This document shows positions 1-9,576 of a DNA stretch of 9,576 bases, in pieces (the first letter of the stretch is position 1; the number at the start of each line of letters is the position of its first letter). Below the pieces are notes generated by a model. It did not search any database. It saw nothing but the letters and a program-made list of their open reading frames with translations, and was not told the DNA's origin. This stretch comes from a virus (lineage: Duplodnaviria > Heunggongvirae > Uroviricota > Caudoviricetes), in the IMG/VR virus record IMGVR_UViG_2778261540_000002; one strand, given 5' to 3'. The translations under genes and the position numbers were made by a program.

Positions 1-3000
1 TGACGGTGTTTTCCGCGTTACCAGCAGCGTTAACGGTGATGGTGTGTCCATGTGAACCAATCGCAACGGAGTGCGTATGAGCACCAATACCGACAGTATG
101 CGCGTGTGCACCTGCAGATGCTGCTGTGCCGGACAGTGAATGGCTATGATTACCATCTGTACTGGTATTCGCTAACCACCCCGTAGACATACCTACTGAG
201 CCTTGTACACCCCAGGTATTTTGACCTGAGCTTGTATAACCATATTGATAAGTATCTTTAAAAACACTGGGGTTAAATCGACGGCCATCTCTATGGCTGT
301 GATTACCAGCTGCATTCGTGCTGCCACTTAAACTATGGGTATGCGCACCAGTGTTATTCGTGGATTTAGTGCCGTAATCAAACGACGATGTGGTTTTCGT
401 CCCCAAATCCGTACTGGATGCGCTGGCGCTGTGGGTGTGCGATTTAATGCCGTCCTGTTCCTGAGACAATACGGCCCGACCACTGGCAGGTTTGCCCTTA
501 ATCGTCCAGCCACGCATATCAGGGATCACGCCTGACGGATAAGCCGCTGCAAGTTTCGGGTATGCAGATTTGTCAAAAGCCTGCCCCTGCATCAGGGCAT
601 AGCCAGACGGAACGGTATCTGATGGCCACGGGATTGGTGCGCCGACTGGGTAGCTTTCTGGTGGAAGATTTTTCGAGGTATAAACTTCTGCCCAGTCTTC
701 CTCAAAACCATAACCGTCTCTTGAAGAACGGTAGAACAGACCACCATTTCTGTAATGCGCCTTCATCTGCAAGGTCCGGCAACTTCCGACTCCGGTATAG
801 AAGTTAACCAGAATATAGCTGTCGCCAGAGCGGGTGACATTATAAGCGCCTGATTCGGCATTCCAGGGAACGCCACCATCCGCATCGGCATATGTATCCG
901 TTGCCCTTCTGGCAAAAGCAGCCACATGCGCGGCGGTTAAAGTAATATCTTTGGAACCATCAAACTCAACACCAGAAACCCGTCTTGGCGTTTGCAGCTT
1001 TGTTGCTGTTAATGCATTACCGTTCAGACTTGCGGACAGTTTGGTTCCAATAACCAGTTCGCCGGTTGCGTTATCAATAGCAAACGGTCTTAATGTATTC
1101 CAGCCACCATAAACATCACCTTGATTGGTAAGCAGCAGGTAAGTTTTAGCGCCATCATTACGCCATAATGCCCCATACTCCCCACCTATCATTCGAATCT
1201 GATTACCACCACACGCTACAATTTCGTCTGTGGCAAAAAGTTTTTTGCACGACAAGTTATCGTTAACGATTAACGAATGAGACTCATAAAAACCACGCCC
1301 ACTCTTAAAATCAAGGATAACGTCCGCCGCGATACATTCAGTCGCCGGATTTGTTGCCCCAAACTTATAGGTCGTATCATTAACAACGAGATCAGCACCA
1401 GGTGCGGATATTGACAGGCCATCTTCGATAAACGCAAAAACAGGGAAAGCAGCGCCATCAACATAGAACACAGAGCGCAAATCATCGCCCTTATTACTCA
1501 TCATTATTGAGTGGATGGCTCGTTCATTGTTTTGATATTGCCAGAACATTCCATAAGCATAACGCCCCCTGTCAGTCCAGCCACCAGGCATAACAAATCC
1601 GTTAAACTCGCAGTTATTCATCGGATCGCCTGCGGTTCGCGTTGCCGTGGTGATAATGACCCTTGATGCCAGTTCGCTTACTGAGCCAGCAGAACGCATA
1701 ACAACAACAGGGTAATATTTTCCAGATGTTGCACCTGCAGGAGCGTTAACCCACACATAACGCATACCACGCTTATCAGCAAAGTCTGTTTTACTGACCG
1801 CGTTAATGTTGTTCAGGAAGCGTCCCTTATCGGGTATATCAGCGCCGTTCTGGTCTTTCTGCAGACGTTTCTCTGCATTGTCATAGGCTGATTTTACTGC
1901 CTTTGGCGTTGCCGCCAGCGTTTCAGACGTACTGTTGGTCGCACTGCTGAGCTGTACTATCCCCTTTTTCGTCGTACTTGCATCCTCAAGCGCCACGGCG
2001 GATGCAATATCCTCTGCCCGTTTTGCCGCTGTCTCGGCGCGCGTTGCCGCGGATTCCGCCGTACTTTTGCTCTGTGCTGCCGCCGTCGCACTGCCAGCTG
2101 CCTCTGTCGCCTTCGTGGATGCTGTCGTGGCGCTGCCCTTCGCTGCGGAAGCAGACCTCGCTGCTGCGCTGGCCTGTTCAGTGGCTTCGCCAGCCTTCGT
2201 TGTGGCTGTTGAAGCAGACGATGCGGCACTTTCTGCCGATTTTCCGGCGGCGGTGGCACTGGCTGAGGCCTGCCCGGCACTTGTTGACGCGGCACTGGCA
2301 GACGACGCAGCCGCTGTTGTTGAGCCTGCCGCAGCCGAGGCGCTCTGTCCCGCTGCCGTTTCAGAAGACCTGGCGTTTGTCTCAGACGTCTTTGCCGCCT
2401 TCGCGGAATTGCCTGCCGCCGTTGCCGAGGAAGCGGCACTACTGGCGCTTGATGATGCGTTCGTTTCTGATGATTTCGCTGCCTCTTTTGAGGCCGCCGC
2501 ATCCCGGGCTGAGGTGGCTGCTTCTGACGCCTTCGTGGTCGCGGCGGATGCAGAAGTGGCTGCTGATTGTTGTGACGCTGCCGCATTCGTTTCTGACGTT
2601 TTCGCCGCAGCGGCACTGGTAGCTGCCGCGCTTTTTGAGGACTCTGCAGCAGCAGCACTTTTCGATGCTTCACTGGCCTTTGTTGATGCCGTTCCTGCGC
2701 TGGAAGATGCTGACTGAGCCGACGACGCGGCCTGTCCGGCTGACGTGCTGGCTGCGCGTGCTGAGCCTGCAGCATCAGTCGCATGGGTTGCCGCCTCACG
2801 GGCTGATGTGCCGGCATCGCTGGCTGACTTCTTCGCGGCTGCCGTGTTCTGTGCCACCGCGGACGCGTTACGCGCCACCTCTTCCACCATCAGTTCAAAA
2901 CGGCGCAGTGCCTCAGGACGGGCATCATCCTCCGTCATGGCACCGAGAAAATCATTCAGCGTACCGGGTCGGGAATCTTCATACACGGTGATGGTCCCGG

Positions 3001-3214
3001 CATGTGACGGCGGGAATCCCTCCACCAACAGAATAACGCTGTACTGCCCGTACTCAACGTCCATGCTGTAACGCCCGGCTTCATCCGGATTTTCTGAGGC
3101 CAGCGTGTTCACCACCACCGTGGTGCTGTTACGTTTTGCTTTCAGCTGGATTGTGCAGTTCTGTACCGGTTTTCCTGTGCCGTCTTTCAGTACACCTGAA
3201 ATCTTTACTGCCAT
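1..3214 (-). CDS. stf: Side tail fibre protein, StfR/lambda Stf-like; 3' end truncated by the window edge (about 1071 codons in window, stop codon lies beyond position 1)
   Basis: ATG at 3214-3212 preceded by GGGGTG. My translation begins [81 protein letters not shown], the conserved lambda Stf N-terminal domain. Spot translations at 1801-1920 ([39 protein letters not shown]), 1441-1500 ([22 protein letters not shown]), 601-720 ([34 protein letters not shown]) and 1-360 (HxH-rich end ...[19 protein letters not shown]) stay in one frame. The ORF track lists no complete minus-strand ORF in this frame below 3214, consistent with one open frame running off the edge. Confidence 0.9.
1930..2870 (-). 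repeat. Low-complexity Ala/Ser/Thr-rich coding repeats forming the fibre shaft (motifs such as [30 protein letters not shown]), GC-rich
   Basis: Direct translation of the stf frame. At DNA level, near-repeats are visible, e.g. gtctcagacgtctttgccgcc (about 2380), gtttctgatgatttcgctgcc (about 2462) and gtttctgacgttttcgccgcagc (about 2590). This region produces the long Ala-rich and Arg/Gln/Pro-rich alternate-frame ORFs in the track. Boundaries are approximate. Confidence 0.6.
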
Positions 3215-3223
3215 ATTCACCCC

Positions 3224-3252
3224 ACAAAAAAGCCCGCCTGAACCGGCGGGCT
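3224..3252 (-). terminator. Putative rho-independent terminator downstream of lom: 8-bp GC-rich stem, 6-nt loop, then a run of 6 U on the minus-strand transcript
   Basis: Plus strand 3231-3238 agcccgcc and 3245-3252 ggcgggct are perfect reverse complements with loop tgaacc; an A-run at 3226-3231 on plus is the U-tract on minus. It sits between the lom stop (3279-3281) and the stf start (3214). Confidence 0.6.
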
Positions 3253-3278
3253 GTCATAACACTGTGTTACCTGGCTAA

Positions 3279-3878
3279 TCAGAATTTATAACCGACACCC
3301 ACGATGAAACCGTCAGTGCGCCAGTCACCACTGCCGGAGCCTTCATAAGCAATATCAATGGCCACGGATTCGGTCGGGTTAAACTGCACGCCAGCCCCCC
3401 ACGCCAGAGACGTGTTGCTGTGGCGACCGTCATCACTTCCGGTCAGCACATCGTGCTTTTTCCCCTTGTTGTCAGTTACGCGAAGATAATCCCCGGAGAA
3501 AGTCGACACACGGCTGTAAGCTACACCCGCCATCGCATACGCGCTGAACCATTCATTCACGCGCACAGACGGCCCCGCCATTACGCTGAACCAGCGGTTA
3601 CGAACGGAATCTTCATGCCAGCGGGTATCGCTGTAACGGGTCAGCTGGCGATTCTTGTCTCCTGCATAGCTGAATGACGTCACCAGCCCCAGTGTGTCCG
3701 TAAACTCATAACGGTATTTCACGTTAATCCCGTTCAGATCATCACTGCCGGGGACGTTCGTCGAGGCATGAAGATACCCCGCGCTCAGCGTGGACTGATG
3801 TTCAGACGCCCATGCAGGCGCACCGGATACGGCCAGACAAATGGCTGCGGACAAAATTGCTGCACAAACTTTACGCAT
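3279..3878 (-). CDS. lom: Outer-membrane beta-barrel protein of the Ail/Lom/PagC/OmpX family (Lom homologue), 199 aa, with N-terminal signal peptide
   Basis: ORF with ATG at 3878-3876 preceded by AGAGG. N-terminus MRKVCAAILSAAICLAVSGAPAWA is a signal peptide with an AxA cleavage site. C-terminus ...IAYEGSGSGDWRTDGFIVGVGYKF ends in an aromatic residue typical of outer-membrane barrels and matches my recollection of the lambda Lom C-terminus. Position immediately downstream of J is as in lambda. Confidence 0.9.
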   Translation of the reverse strand: MRKVCAAILSAAICLAVSGAPAWASEHQSTLSAGYLHASTNVPGSDDLNGINVKYRYEFTDTLGLVTSFSYAGDKNRQLTRYSDTRWHEDSVRNRWFSVMAGPSVRVNEWFSAYAMAGVAYSRVSTFSGDYLRVTDNKGKKHDVLTGSDDGRHSNTSLAWGAGVQFNPTESVAIDIAYEGSGSGDWRTDGFIVGVGYKF

Positions 3879-3900
3879 AATTACCTCTCGCTTTTCTGCA

Positions 3901-3930
3901 ATAAAAAAGGCGTCATTCCTGACGCCCTTT
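3901..3930 (-). terminator. Putative rho-independent terminator after J (tJ-like): 7-bp stem ggcgtca/tgacgcc, 4-nt loop, then UUUUUU on the minus-strand transcript
   Basis: Plus 3909-3915 ggcgtca and 3920-3926 tgacgcc are reverse complements with loop ttcc; A-run 3903-3908 on plus is the U-tract on minus. Located in the 70-bp gap between the J stop (3949) and the lom start (3878). Confidence 0.65.
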
Positions 3931-3948
3931 ATTGGGGTTATAAATATT

Positions 3949-6900
3949 TCAACGAATACTGATGCCGGAAGCGGCTTTTTTGGTCACAATCACCGTACAG
4001 TCGGTGATATTGCCTGCCCCCTGATTGCCTTTCTGGAAAATCTTAAACTCCAGAGTGACGCTTCCCCTGCCACTCGGCATATCAATAACTGCACTGTAAC
4101 TACCGGGAATGGCCCCTTTAGTTTCTCTGGATGCGATTAATACGCCGTTTTTGCGAACTTCAAAACCATAACCCGTGTATCGCGTGCCTCCTGGGTTATT
4201 TCCGCTCCCCGGATCGTCATACGCTATACCGTTAAAAATAATGGGCGGAATAATAATCTGGCGGTCAAAGTTATGATCATCGCTGATGGTGACTGTAACC
4301 GTACCGTTTGGTGTTTCCGTGTTACCCCACGTACCGACTTTTTTCGGGAAGGCTTTTGATACAGCTTTAACGAAATCTCCTCTGACCTGGGTCGCCTCCA
4401 GCATGCCCTTAATCGTACAGTTCTGGTTAATCGTGACATTGTTGAGCGTTCCTGAGTTCGCATTCACACTGCCACTGATATCCGCATTTTTCGCCGTCAG
4501 TCTCCCGTCTGATGTCAGGGAAAATGCCGGAGGATTACCGCCGCTGGTAATGGTGGGGGCCGTCAGGCGTTTCAGGAACACTTCATTCATGAATATCTGA
4601 TCGCCCTGACCAACAAACATCGGCTTTGTGTTGCCATTCGCAGGATTAATCATCGCAATCCTGTCTGCTGCCAGCAGCACCTGACTCTGCATGCCGTCAG
4701 GGGTGTTCTCAATACCGGCACCGATACCCGCAATATAAAGGCGTCCGTCCTGCATCTGCTGCAGCTTCACTGCCCACATGCTGTTCAGGTTATTATTTGT
4801 ATCAACCTGAACCTTCTGTATCTGCTGGATCGCTGCACTCTGGTCTTCCAGTTTCTTATTGACGGTCTGTGTTATTTCATTGCTGACATCCGTTATGGAC
4901 GTCCTGATTTCAGTCAGGTCAGGCGCAAGCTGACCGTTATCAATCTGCGTCCACAGCTCCTGAGCCAGATGGGTTTTCCCTATCTCGCCTTTGAAAAAAT
5001 CCAGATAGCCTGATGCATCATCACTCGGCTGACCGACAGCCTCCACGAATGCCGATTTGCCAACGGTGTTCACACTGCGAACGTAAAAATAATAATCATG
5101 GCCCGGTTTGATATTGATACTGGCGGCTATCCAGTACAGTGCCGTACCAAGATAACGCGCGCTGGTTTCAACCTGCCTGATATCCGCAATCCGTTTTTCC
5201 GAGAACCAGAACTCAAACTGTACCGTCGGGTCATAAACCGCAAGATGCGGCGTGGCGGTTATCTGAAAATAGCCCGGCGTCAGCTCAATCCGCGACGGCG
5301 CTGCCGGTGCGGCAATCCGGAACGATACCGACGCCGGATCGCCCTGCTGCCCCCACGCATTTACTGCCCGGACTGTCAGCCTGTAGTTCCCCAGAGCCAG
5401 TTGTGTGAAGCGGTAAGTGGTTTCCGTCGTCCGGGCCGTGCTGACCAGCCGCTCACGGCCGTCATCCGCTGCCACGGTCAGGCGAAGCAGGAAGCTCACG
5501 CCCTTCACCACCTTCGGCGTGTCCCAGCGCGCCAGCACCTGGTATTCCCCGCTGTCTGCGGTGACTTCTGCGGTCAGGTGCTGCACCGCTGGCGGCGTGA
5601 CACCATTTACCGTGCCGCTCTGGTCGCCGTCAAAGTGCGCCCCGTTATCCACGATGGCCTCTTTTTCCGGTACATGCTGCACGGCGGTGATGGCATACGT
5701 GCCGTCGTCGTTCTCACGGATACTCACGCAGCGGAACAGGCGCTGGCGCAACGTCGGCAGCTTCAGCCCCCATACGCTGTATTCAGCAACGCCGTCAGGA
5801 ACACGGCTCACTTTCACCTTCACGCCGTCGGTGACGGACTGAACCTCCACGCTGACCGGACTCCCCTGCCCGTCAACCAGGCTTATCAGCGTGGTGCCGG
5901 AAGATGGCAGCGTGATTTCACGGTCGAGCGTCAGCGTCCGGGTCTGGCTGTTTACCGCCAGCACGCGCCCGCCGGTGCGGATACCGGCATAGTCATCATC
6001 GCAGATTTCAATGACATCGCCCGGTACATGGCGAAGCCCTTCGGCACCCACGCTGAAGTCCACGGTCTGCGTTTCCAGCAGTTCTGTTTTAATCAGCCAC
6101 AGCCCGGCGCGGTGTGCCTGCCCCCGGCTGGTACAGCCAAAAGCATCCATCTTCGTGACGTTACGACCGTAACGGGCAATGGCCTGCGTGTCCTCCACAA
6201 GCTCTGTCGCCGTCTCCCAGCCGTTATTCGGGTCAATCCAGTTCACCTCAACGGCATTATGGCGGTCCTTCAGGGCGCTGAAGCTGTAGCGGAACGGCGC
6301 ACCATCATCCGGCATCACCACATTACTGCGGTTATAGGTCCACACCTTATCCGACGGTCGGTCCTGCACGAACGTCAGCGTCTGCCCGTTCCATACCGGC
6401 ATACAGCGCATCGCAGAGCAGAAATCACTGAGCACATCCCACGCCTTGCGCTGTGTGGTCAGGTACGCATTACAGGTGATGCGCGGCTCCGTGCCGCCAA
6501 AACCGTCCGGCACCGACTGATCGCAATGCTGGCCGATGACATACAGCGCCCATTTGTCCACATCCGCCGCACCAAGACGTTTCCCCATGCCGTAGCGCGG
6601 ATGGGTCAGCATATCCCACAGACACCAGGCCATGTTGTTGCTGTATGCTGGCTTAAACGTTCCGTCCCAGATACCGCTGTATTGCCGCGTCTGCGGGTTA
6701 TAGTTCGACGGCACCTGCAGAATGCGCCCGCGCAGATGATAATTACGGCTCACCTGCTGGCTGCCGAACTGCTCCGAATCCACCTGCACGCCGACCAGTG
6801 CCGTGTTCGGGTAGCACTGTTTCACATCGATGATTTCGGTGTATGACGACCAGAGCGTTTTGTTCTGCAGCTGGTCTGTGGTGCTGTCCGGCGTCATCCT

Positions 6901-7446
6901 GCGCATCCGTATATTGAACGGGCGCGGCGGCAGGTTACCCACCACCACCGAGGCCAGATACTGCGAGGTGGTTTTGCCCTTAATGGTGATGTCTTTTTCC
7001 GTCACCCAGCCACCATTACGCTGGATCTGAACCAGCAGGCGGACTTCCGACGGATTCCGGTCCCCCTTTGAGGTGGTTTCCACCAGTGCCTGCACGCCGA
7101 AGGTAAAGCGCAGACGGTCGATGTTTGCAGACGTAATGGTGCGGGTGATCGGCGTGTCATATTTCACTTCCGTACCCAGCACCGTCTCGGAGCCGGAGGA
7201 TTCAAACCCCTCCGGCGGTGTCTGCTCCTGCTCACCGGCACGGAACACCACCGTGACACCGGAGATGTTGGTATTCCCCTCAGTGTCCAGCACCGGCGTA
7301 CTGTTCAGCAGCACGCTTTTTAATCCATCCACCGGACCTTCAACCGGCCCTTCGCTGATGGCATCGATCACACTCAGCAGCTGCGTGGACTTCAGGTTGT
7401 CCTTCGCTTCGCGCGGGGTATGCCCCTTACTGCTGCCTTTACCCAT
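3949..7446 (-). CDS. J: Tail tip / central tail fibre host-specificity protein J (lambda gpJ homologue), 1165 aa
   Basis: Complete 1165-aa ORF. N-terminus [34 protein letters not shown]... and most of the first 800 or so residues match lambda J as I recall it. GGAG lies 8 nt upstream of the ATG. Gene order I then J then lom is conserved with lambda. Confidence 0.95.
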
Positions 7447-7468
7447 TCCTCACGCTCCATAAATGACA

Positions 7469-7488
7469 AAACCGCCCGCAGGCGGTTT
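7469..7488 (-). other. Perfect 8-bp stem-loop (aaaccgcc / cgca / ggcggttt) in the I-J intergenic spacer, followed by a U-rich stretch on the minus-strand transcript; possible attenuator or RNA-stabilising hairpin
   Basis: Seen directly in the 60-bp gap between the I stop (7507-7509) and the J start (7446). Function is not inferable from sequence alone. Confidence 0.35.
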
Positions 7489-7506
7489 CACATAAAACAT
7501 TTTGCA

Positions 7507-8178
7507 TCAGCGACCAATCACCACAACCTGACCACCGTCCCCTTCGTCTGCCGTGCTGATCTCCTGAGAAACCACGCGAGACCCCACGCGCATTTCCCCG
7601 TACAGAACAGGCAGAACATTGCCCTGGGCAACCATGTTATCCAGTGAGGAGAAATAGGTGTTCTGCTTACCGTTATCCGTTGTCTGTGTACGGGGAGTTC
7701 TGGCTTTCGGTGCCAGCATCTGCGCCACACCACCGAGCACCATACTGGCACCGAGAGAAAACAGGATGCCGGTCATACCACCGGTCCCAATGGCTGCCCC
7801 CCATGCTGCAAGGGTGGCTCCGGCGGTAAAGAATGATCCGGCAATGGCGGCAGCCCCCAGGACAATCTGGAATACGCCACCTGACTTGGCCCCGGCGACT
7901 CTGGGAACAATATGAATCACAGCGCCATCAGGCAGAGTCTCATGTAACTGCGCCGTTAACCCGGACGTGCTGACGTCCCGCCCGGCAATCCGTACCTGAT
8001 ACCAGCCGTCGCTCAGTTTCTGACGAAACGCCGGGAGCTGTGTGGCCAGTGCCCGGATGGCTTCAGCCCCCGTTTTCACACGAAGGTCGATGCGGCGACC
8101 AAATCGTTGTAAATCCCCGTAAAGGCAGATGCGCGCCATGCCCGGTGACGCCAGAGGGAGTGTGTGCGTCGCTGCCAT
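7507..8178 (-). CDS. I: Tail assembly protein I (lambda gpI homologue), 223 aa
   Basis: 223-aa ORF, the same length as lambda I as I recall it. Begins MAATHTLPLASPGMARICLYGDLQRFGRRIDLRV. Contains a long Gly/Ala-rich hydrophobic segment (GGVFQIVLGAAAIAGSFFTAGATLAAWGAAIGTGGMTGILFSLGASMVLGG). Overlaps the 3' end of K by 103 bp in another frame, as in lambda. Confidence 0.9.
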   Translation of the reverse strand: MAATHTLPLASPGMARICLYGDLQRFGRRIDLRVKTGAEAIRALATQLPAFRQKLSDGWYQVRIAGRDVSTSGLTAQLHETLPDGAVIHIVPRVAGAKSGGVFQIVLGAAAIAGSFFTAGATLAAWGAAIGTGGMTGILFSLGASMVLGGVAQMLAPKARTPRTQTTDNGKQNTYFSSLDNMVAQGNVLPVLYGEMRVGSRVVSQEISTADEGDGGQVVVIGR

Positions 8179-8819
8179 TTGTCGGTGTACCTCTCTCGTT
8201 TGCTCAGTTGTTCAGGAATATGGTGCAGCAGCTCGCCGTCGCCGCAGTAAATTGCGGCGTGATTCGGCACCGATGAACCAAAACAGCACAGCAGCACATC
8301 GCCCGGCTGTGCCGCTGACAACGGCACCTGATACAGCCCCGTCGCCTCCAGATTATCCAGATAGAGATTCTGGCCGTTACGCCACCAGTCATCCTCACGA
8401 TAAAAGTCCGGCATCTCAATCCCCGCCAGATGATAAGCATCCCGGAACAGTGTGTAACAGTCCGTCACACCGTGCTCAAAGCGCCGCCCGGTGAGATGCG
8501 GCACACAGCGGAACTTATGAATCGTCCCCCGGCAGACCAGCCACCACGGCAAATCACTCTGCACCTGCAGCCGCCGGTCGGCCTCACTCAGCCAGGGCAG
8601 ACCACCGGGGTGGCTGTGGACCAGCGCCACAATCTCACCCTGCATTTCTGCCTGCAGCCAGTCTTCCGGCGACATACGGAAATACGCCTCCGGCTCACCG
8701 GAGATATTCACGCAGGGAAAATATCTTTCCCCCTCCGGCGTGCTTACCACGAAGCCGCACGACTCCGCTGGCGCACATCGCCGGGCGTGCGCCAGAATCG
8801 CTGATTCTGTCTGTGTCAT
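8076..8819 (-). CDS. K: Tail assembly protein K (lambda gpK homologue) with a JAMM/MPN+ metalloprotease motif and a C-terminal NlpC/P60-like Cys/His region. Maximal ORF is 247 aa; the internal ATG at 8675 would give the 199-aa form I recall as the classical lambda annotation
   Basis: ORF MTQTESAILAHARRCAPAESCGFVVSTPEGERYF... HSHPGGLPWLSEAD fits the JAMM signature HxH-x7-S-xx-D. The downstream GVTDCYTLFRDAYH ... HHIPEQ provides candidate catalytic Cys and His. ATG at 8819 lies 5 nt after the L stop codon with only a weak SD; the internal ATG at 8675 has GGAGG 11 nt upstream. Confidence 0.85.
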   Translation of the reverse strand: MTQTESAILAHARRCAPAESCGFVVSTPEGERYFPCVNISGEPEAYFRMSPEDWLQAEMQGEIVALVHSHPGGLPWLSEADRRLQVQSDLPWWLVCRGTIHKFRCVPHLTGRRFEHGVTDCYTLFRDAYHLAGIEMPDFYREDDWWRNGQNLYLDNLEATGLYQVPLSAAQPGDVLLCCFGSSVPNHAAIYCGDGELLHHIPEQLSKRERYTDKWQRRTHSLWRHRAWRASAFTGIYNDLVAASTFV

Positions 8820-8824
8820 GGGAT

Positions 8825-9559
8825 TTACTGCGAAAGTTTGTTAATGGAAAGGAAGCCGCCAAAGTTGCCGACGTTATTGCGGAACTTACAACCGCTCAGG
8901 CATTTGCTGCATTTATCCTTCGTGATATCGGACGTTGGCTGGTCATATTCATCCGCGACAGCCGGACCGCTATAACCGCACTCGTCACCGCGATAGGTCC
9001 AGGTGCAGGTGTTGGCCAGCATGATACGTCCCGGAAAAACAGCGCCATCCGTTTCCGTCGGCGTGGACAGTACAAAGGAGGCACTCACCGCGCTCAGTTC
9101 GCTGCACTGCTCAATGCGCCAGCGGCTGATCACCTCCTGCTCCGGATCGGCGTAACTGTTTCCGTTGACGAAGTTCACCGCATCCAGAAAACGGGCGTAA
9201 ACCTTACGCCGGACCACCGTTCCGCCGACCAGACTCTGCATATCTTCCGCCATCCCGGTGACCATACCGTACAGGTTAGAAACCGTCAGCGTGGGGCGCG
9301 TACTGGTGCCTTTGCCATTCAGTTCAAAACCGCTCCCCTGAATGGGATACGGCTGATACTGTCGCCCCTGCCAGGTGACCGGCTCACCTTTTTCGTTCTG
9401 CTCATTACAGAAAAAATAACGTTCTCCACCGACCTCTGTCAGGTCGATTTCCCAGAGCACCACGCTGGCCGACTGCTCCGCACGGGTGCATTCATTCAGT
9501 GTTTCCTGCCGGATATCCGTATCCTGAGCCGTCTGCAGGTTCAGTGAGTCCCCCGGCAT
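8825..9559 (-). CDS. L: Tail tip protein L (lambda gpL homologue), about 244 aa from the ATG at 9559; C-terminal Cys cluster
   Basis: Translation ...DIRQETLNECTRAEQSASVVLWEIDLTEVGGERYFFCNEQNEKGEPVTWQGRQYQPYPIQGSGFELNGKG... matches lambda L as I recall it. The track's ORF begins at a GTG (9571) shown as M; the first ATG is at 9559-9557 and overlaps a TGA stop of the upstream frame (ATGA), as at the lambda M/L junction. C-terminus carries four Cys (GDECGY, DKCSKCLSGCKF). Confidence 0.85.
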   Translation of the reverse strand: MPGDSLNLQTAQDTDIRQETLNECTRAEQSASVVLWEIDLTEVGGERYFFCNEQNEKGEPVTWQGRQYQPYPIQGSGFELNGKGTSTRPTLTVSNLYGMVTGMAEDMQSLVGGTVVRRKVYARFLDAVNFVNGNSYADPEQEVISRWRIEQCSELSAVSASFVLSTPTETDGAVFPGRIMLANTCTWTYRGDECGYSGPAVADEYDQPTSDITKDKCSKCLSGCKFRNNVGNFGGFLSINKLSQ

Positions 9560-9576
9560 CAGGTGCGGCACTTTTG
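9559..9576 (-). CDS. M: Last five codons plus stop of the upstream tail gene (M-like by synteny); 5' part lies outside the window
   Basis: Minus-strand reading of 9576-9559 gives Q K C R T then TGA, with the stop overlapping the L ATG. Identity as M is by position only. Confidence 0.4.
   Translation of the reverse strand, partial: QKCRT

Follow-up and report, generated by a model that had tools for sequence, protein, structure and literature searches.

A side tail fibre gene of a lambda-like Escherichia coli prophage with a gp37-type HxH needle and an exchangeable tip

The window analyzed here, a 9,576-nt stretch of viral DNA, carries on its minus strand (2–3214) an stfR allele of a lambda-like E. 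coli prophage. The product of this gene very probably ends in a collar and metal-stapled needle of the T4 gp37 type, with an exchangeable tip, on a lambda-like prophage side fibre. This conclusion builds on what the sequences show directly: homology, the register of the motifs, their conservation, and the limits of the cassette. Published work already describes the metal ladder that HxH pairs form in needles of the gp37 type, its occurrence in lambda Stf, and the variability of the tip that separates the motifs, and more than 1000 genomes and several phage records already contain this exact allele. What the gene encodes is a textbook needle of the gp37 type, the stfR allele is a very common one, and the first-pass annotation overrated its novelty because the tip allele is very common. 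Its discovery value is small; its practical value lies in annotation and engineering.

The stf gene and its locus

A minus-strand reading frame is open from the window edge, where its last codon lies at 2–4, up to 3253, with an ATG at 3214. The ORF defined by this start is as follows:

2–3214, minus strand: ORF of the side tail fibre gene stf, of which the window holds 1071 codons; the 11 codons that precede the stop lie past the window edge

L, K, I, J, and Ail/Lom were found upstream on the same strand with intact ORFs, giving the gene order L-K-I-J-lom-stf. The Pfam matches of L, K, I, J, lom, and stf were full-length, and the L-K-I-J-lom block is the lambda tail-tip block. In stf, Pfam detected phage_tail_N (PF08400; residues 1–134, E = 1.5e-71), the gp34-type trimerisation domain Gp34_trimer (614–713), and Collar (PF07484; 858–905, E = 1.3e-11). 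A phmmer search against PDB chains matched the N-terminus to residues 1–94 of the lambda tail fibre (9e7m; E = 1.8e-51). The gene has both attributes of a lambda-type Stf, namely an N-terminal tail-docking domain and a position after J and lom. Between the lambda-type N-terminus and the gp37-type needle, the fibre is a mosaic in which residues 392–472, 614–728, and 764–858 matched other phage fibres; two of these segments matched the phage Mu tail fibre S/S' (5yvq, 8ju3) and one matched the T4 gp34 trimerisation domain (4uxe, 5nxf).

Many E. coli chromosomes are 99.9% identical to the whole window, and the gene is annotated there as stfR or prophage tail fibre. In one near-identical chromosome, the locus reads ydfJ'-ynfT-ydfK-pinQ-tfaQ-stf-lom-J. 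In copies 99.9–100% identical over the window, stf continues for 11 further residues (…NAENTVKNIAFNYIVRLA) before a stop that overlaps tfa. These residues correspond to KNIAFNYIVRLA minus its V, the V being inside the window; the C-terminal strand expected to return to the collar (KNIAFNYIVRLA) lies beyond the window and was seen in genes 99.9% identical over it. WP_024171883.1 has the full C-terminus, up to residue 1082. tfa is also outside the window, and it overlaps the stf stop in locus L001, phage Kati, and K-12. The presence of a pin invertase gene just past tfa in near-identical loci prompted a search for the crossover core of Din-family invertases (AAACCNNGGTTT, at most one mismatch), which gave no match in window positions 1–9576. 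Additionally, Tandem Repeats Finder detected no arrays in 1–3300.

Compared with its nearest relatives and K-12 stfR, the window stf is short of 147 nt (49 residues, in frame). The deletion site is at ca. 2150 (between 2147 and 2150) on the minus strand, in the Ala/Ser-rich shaft. Since the missing segment starts with the same 12 nt (TCCGCAGCGAAG) as follow it, the comparison suggests that the loss arose by deletion between short direct repeats.

HxH motifs and needle architecture

The first-pass annotation had reported six HxH motifs in the distal C-terminal part of the fibre, at 20–345. Its minus-strand translation was reproduced exactly, its count and range hold, and all six motifs within 20–345 are of the form G-x-H-x-H. 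However, the domain total is seven, the seventh motif being located at 431–439. The six motifs are present near the end of the in-window protein, but the location "distal C-terminal" needs adjustment, as the ORF leaves the window and 11 more residues follow in near-identical genes. The motifs and the parts of the needle that carry them are as follows:

500–643, minus strand: Collar domain (aa 858–905; PF07484), equivalent of gp37 D10 and base of the needle, aligned to 2xgf_A from chain residue 27
293–439, minus strand: ascending needle arm (aa 926–974) with HxH 1–3, one-to-one with T4 H883/885, H915/917, and H929/931
431–439, minus strand: HxH 1, KSHTH, without Gly, outside 20–345
335–343, minus strand: HxH 2, GAHTH
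293–301, minus strand: HxH 3, GNHSH
149–292, minus strand: hypervariable tip cassette (aa 975–1022, 48 aa), presumed receptor-binding tip, aligning with the gp37 tip
44–148, minus strand: descending needle arm (aa 1023–1057) with HxH 4–7, ungapped against T4 H966/968, H980/982, H989/991, and H998/1000
140–148, minus strand: HxH 4, GNHSH
98–106, minus strand: HxH 5, GAHAH
71–79, minus strand: HxH 6, GAHTH
44–52, minus strand: HxH 7, GSHGH
2–43, minus strand: start of the C-terminal return segment, 14 residues, the other 11 lying beyond the window

All 14 His residues among the last 219 in-window residues belong to the seven pairs, and the remaining 852 residues of stf contain only six His. The region is compositionally simple, as would be expected if the HxH repeats were a chance or low-complexity feature of a sequence rich in Gly, Ser, Thr, and His. 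However, when the 219-residue segment was shuffled 100,000 times, the mean number of HxH was 0.83 and the maximum was 6, so that no shuffle reached seven. The motifs also keep the register of a solved homologue and are conserved throughout the family. A chance or low-complexity origin is refuted by the shuffles, the 2xgf_A register, and the family conservation, and we give it practically no weight.

The best match of the protein among all PDB chains (phmmer) was 2xgf_A, the receptor-binding tip of T4 gp37 (E = 2.7e-75). Query residues 853–1071 aligned with chain residues 27–230, with gaps at one residue and in the tip only. The likeness to the T4 fibre tip, which the first-pass annotation had noticed from the motifs, is therefore one of direct homology beyond motif resemblance. 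In a four-way alignment of the window, K-12 StfR, lambda orf-314, and T4 gp37, all seven HxH were in register with the T4 pairs listed above, and the same seven were found in StfR. The spacings of the motifs (32, 14, tip, 14, 9, and 9) are the same in the window and T4; only the gap that holds the tip differs (51 versus 37).

Seven iron atoms are coordinated along the length of the gp37 needle; H929 and H931 of T4 bind iron and are essential, and Ala substitution of either abolishes plaque formation (PMC6957217). The seven Fe of the gp37 crystal structure are held by paired His, and the motifs are conserved in lambda too (PMC11705849). In the T4 short tail fibre gp12, a site formed by His445 and His447 coordinates Zn in octahedral geometry on the three-fold axis (PMC3004832). 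Because this HxH site holds Zn, the metal of the window's needle should not be assumed to be iron.

Taking trimer geometry and the binding and identity of the metal from the T4 structure, and the receptor from analogy, we propose the following architecture. The last ca. 220 residues would fold as a gp37-type collar plus needle, in which each chain of the trimer would run out to the tip and then back. The HxH pairs, three on the outgoing and four on the returning strand, would turn their imidazoles to the three-fold axis. With six His supplied to each site by the three chains, the thin needle would be stapled by seven octahedral sites, whose metal is Fe2+ in T4 gp37. The 48 residues between HxH 3 and HxH 4 would form the exposed tip that touches the host surface. 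Ur-lambda Stf has been described as a structural homologue of gp37, with its tip modelled onto OmpC (PMC12617516), and the parallel with Ur-lambda Stf and T4 gp37 would make OmpC and/or LPS the likeliest targets of the tip. Tfa, encoded just past the window in near-identical loci, would help the conserved scaffold fold. The HxH scaffold would stay constant while the tip is swapped as a ca. 150-nt cassette, with junctions in the flanking HxH codons. An AlphaFold2 monomer run on the C-terminal 294 residues (P0001), based on an alignment of 90 sequences, gave no usable model (pLDDT 42.6, pTM 0.16).

The motifs could in principle act in recognition directly. According to the "Ferrojan horse" hypothesis, which has been discussed for HxH-bearing tail fibres (PMC11705849), the His-bound iron itself would be offered to a siderophore receptor. 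However, the metals of gp37 are described as coordinated in the needle core by all six ligands, its receptor-binding mutations map to surface residues of the tip, and its receptors are OmpC and LPS (PMC6957217). In addition, host specificity varies, but the HxH positions do not. We consider this explanation very unlikely for the window's fibre.

Conservation of the scaffold and exchange of the tip

HMMER was run exhaustively against 1.84 billion cluster representatives and yielded 1672 relatives. Among the best 139 of these, the His positions were 95% conserved on average, compared with 70% for other positions and 42% for the tip. The HxH positions are conserved among homologous fibres, as the interpretation in the first-pass annotation demanded. 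The domains of the family have 5–8 HxH each, and nearly all of their His occur in such pairs. Lambda orf-314 and the gp37 of phage P896 have eight HxH, with one added repeat on each arm (SFDYGTKT-type on the ascending arm and IGAHxH on the descending arm). Judging from these two proteins, needle length changes in paired steps; the extra repeats would come in pairs on both arms because an out-and-back hairpin needle requires pairing.

The tip behaves differently from this scaffold. It is 48 aa long in the window versus 34 in T4 and 36 in K-12 StfR, and its identity is 8/48 with K-12 StfR, 12/48 with lambda, and 7/48 with T4. Compared with K-12 StfR, the flanks of the tip are identical at 118 of 122 and 48 of 49 residues, which bears out the first-pass remark that the stretch between the motifs differs from that of StfR. 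In 121 close homologues, we counted 47 distinct tips of 32–53 residues, belonging to about a dozen unrelated types, on a near-invariant scaffold. At the DNA level, the segment that differs from K-12 stfR is wider than the tip:

113–350, minus strand: DNA segment diverged from K-12 stfR, the exchanged module (28–68% identity versus about 98% elsewhere), which holds the codons of HxH 2–4

In the stem parts of this segment, 15 codon differences are synonymous only and 5 change the amino acid, and every His is kept. Therefore, selection acts on the protein.

Of 5426 complete E. coli genomes, 1138 contain the 162-nt stretch 140–301, tip included, with an identity of at least 95%; the needle as such is carried by 3820 E. 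coli genomes. Six lambdoid phage records (Kati, mEp460_ev081, PhiR26_1, PhiR34_1, PhiR42_1, and PhiR68_2) have exactly the same 48-residue tip, and lambdoid phage records with an identical needle and tip are deposited with named hosts. Our literature search found no paper on phage Kati or the PhiR phages.

These data bear on whether stf could be decaying within a cryptic prophage, its inherited motifs having lost their function. Such a fate would agree with the 147-nt deletion relative to the nearest relatives, with the fact that stfR, its nearest relative in K-12, belongs to the cryptic prophage Rac, and with the truncated terminase-fibre fusion ORFs that carry the same needle in many genomes. 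However, the deletion preserves the reading frame, the ORFs of L, K, I, J, lom, and stf are intact with full-length Pfam matches, the identical needle and tip occur in the lambdoid phage records with named hosts, and purifying selection is visible in the 15 synonymous versus 5 amino-acid changes. Decay is an unlikely account of this gene, and we retain the reading of stf as encoding a gp37-type needle.

The fusion ORFs are 348 residues long and join the N-terminus of the terminase GpA (PF05876) to the same collar, needle, and tip. They were found in many E. coli genomes (P0011, P0018–P0022, and match H1 on NZ_CM137005.1), P0011 alone being present on 480 contigs. The fusion was presumably left behind by a deletion in a Qin-type prophage. 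Another cluster representative, P0121 (938 aa), has two needle modules; the first ends inside a different tip and is followed by a second shaft, collar, and needle with the window's tip. P0121 must owe its structure either to recombination or to a chimeric assembly.

The virulent T-even phage P896 (Gaprivervirus; OL451225.1; locus L006, 2490–2650) has almost the same tip in its gp37. Window positions 141–298 differ from P896 at 4 nt in 158 nt, whereas the flanks of the shared segment show a mismatch about every 3 nt (about 50–80% identity). The junctions lie within the codons of HxH 3 (293–301) and HxH 4 (140–148). Judging from the sequence comparison, it looks as if virulent and temperate phages exchanged this cassette recently.

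Recombination at "His boxes" is an idea from older T-even literature; our literature search for "His box" found no paper using that term. In its strict form, this explanation holds that the HxH blocks are kept chiefly at the DNA level, as islands of homology for tip swapping rather than for metal binding. The P896 segment, with 4 mismatches inside and one about every 3 nt outside, ends within the HxH 3 and HxH 4 codons, and the segment diverged from stfR (113–350) is likewise bordered by HxH-bearing stem sequence; both are in line with it. Against it, the protein sequence is preserved at the His and at the neighbouring stem residues where the DNA has diverged (15 synonymous versus 5 non-synonymous differences), and the corresponding His of T4 bind iron and are essential, Ala in their place being lethal (PMC6957217). 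We regard this explanation as quite unlikely. A role of the HxH codons in recombination is best understood as something that follows additionally from the conserved scaffold rather than as a competing explanation.

K-12 TfaR and the Tfa encoded beside the window's tip share 97% identity, and Tfa is 93–98% identical among lambdoid loci whatever their tip (L001, 3388–3963; L002, 6519–7094; L003, 7412–7987). P896 gp38 is 87% identical to T4 gp38. Since Tfa is nearly constant across different tips, the tip is not matched to a dedicated chaperone variant. The tip boundaries are now mapped to the nucleotide (141–298 against P896 and 113–350 against stfR); together with a Tfa that does not co-vary with the tip, they are useful for constructing chimeric side fibres of altered host range.

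Tip variation may track variants of OmpC or LPS rather than new receptor classes. Somewhat short of an even chance, in our estimate, is the more specific reading that the window's tip is a distinct receptor-specificity allele that moves as a ca. 150-nt unit between T-even phages and lambdoid prophages. Its movement by recombination inside the HxH codons is held with the same tentativeness, as are examples of what such an allele might target, for instance a particular form of OmpC or type of LPS core that is not recognized by lambda Stf, StfR, or gp37. If this reading is true, the tip would be so frequent, being present in about one in five E. coli genomes, because it is a widely useful host-range determinant.

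Comparison with known fibres

T4 gp37, whose solved tip (PDB 2XGF) consists of the D10 collar and the D11 needle, is identical to the window's protein at 99 of 122 and 36 of 49 residues in two stem segments, shares the C-terminal KNIAFNYIVRLA with the window's close relatives, and likewise has a variable tip between HxH 3 and HxH 4. In contrast, the window's tip is an unrelated sequence (7/48 identical) that is 14 residues longer, the needle sits on a lambda-type Stf shaft rather than the T-even shaft of T4, and the chaperone encoded downstream in the window's relatives is Tfa, which is ca. 28% identical to gp38. T4 gp12 has a collar related to that of the window (9cuy_c match) and uses one HxH from each of three chains per metal; unlike the window's protein, it has a single Zn site and no multi-site needle.

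K-12 StfR (Rac prophage, b1372) is about 98% identical in DNA over nearly the whole gene, with the same domain order, the same seven HxH, and tfa and pin downstream. The window's gene differs in having another tip cassette (113–350 diverged) and the 147-nt in-frame shaft deletion. Ur-lambda Stf (orf-401 plus orf-314), which binds OmpC, shares the N-terminal tail-attachment domain, the needle scaffold, and the position after J and lom, but lambda has one more repeat per arm (8 HxH) and a different, 45-residue tip.
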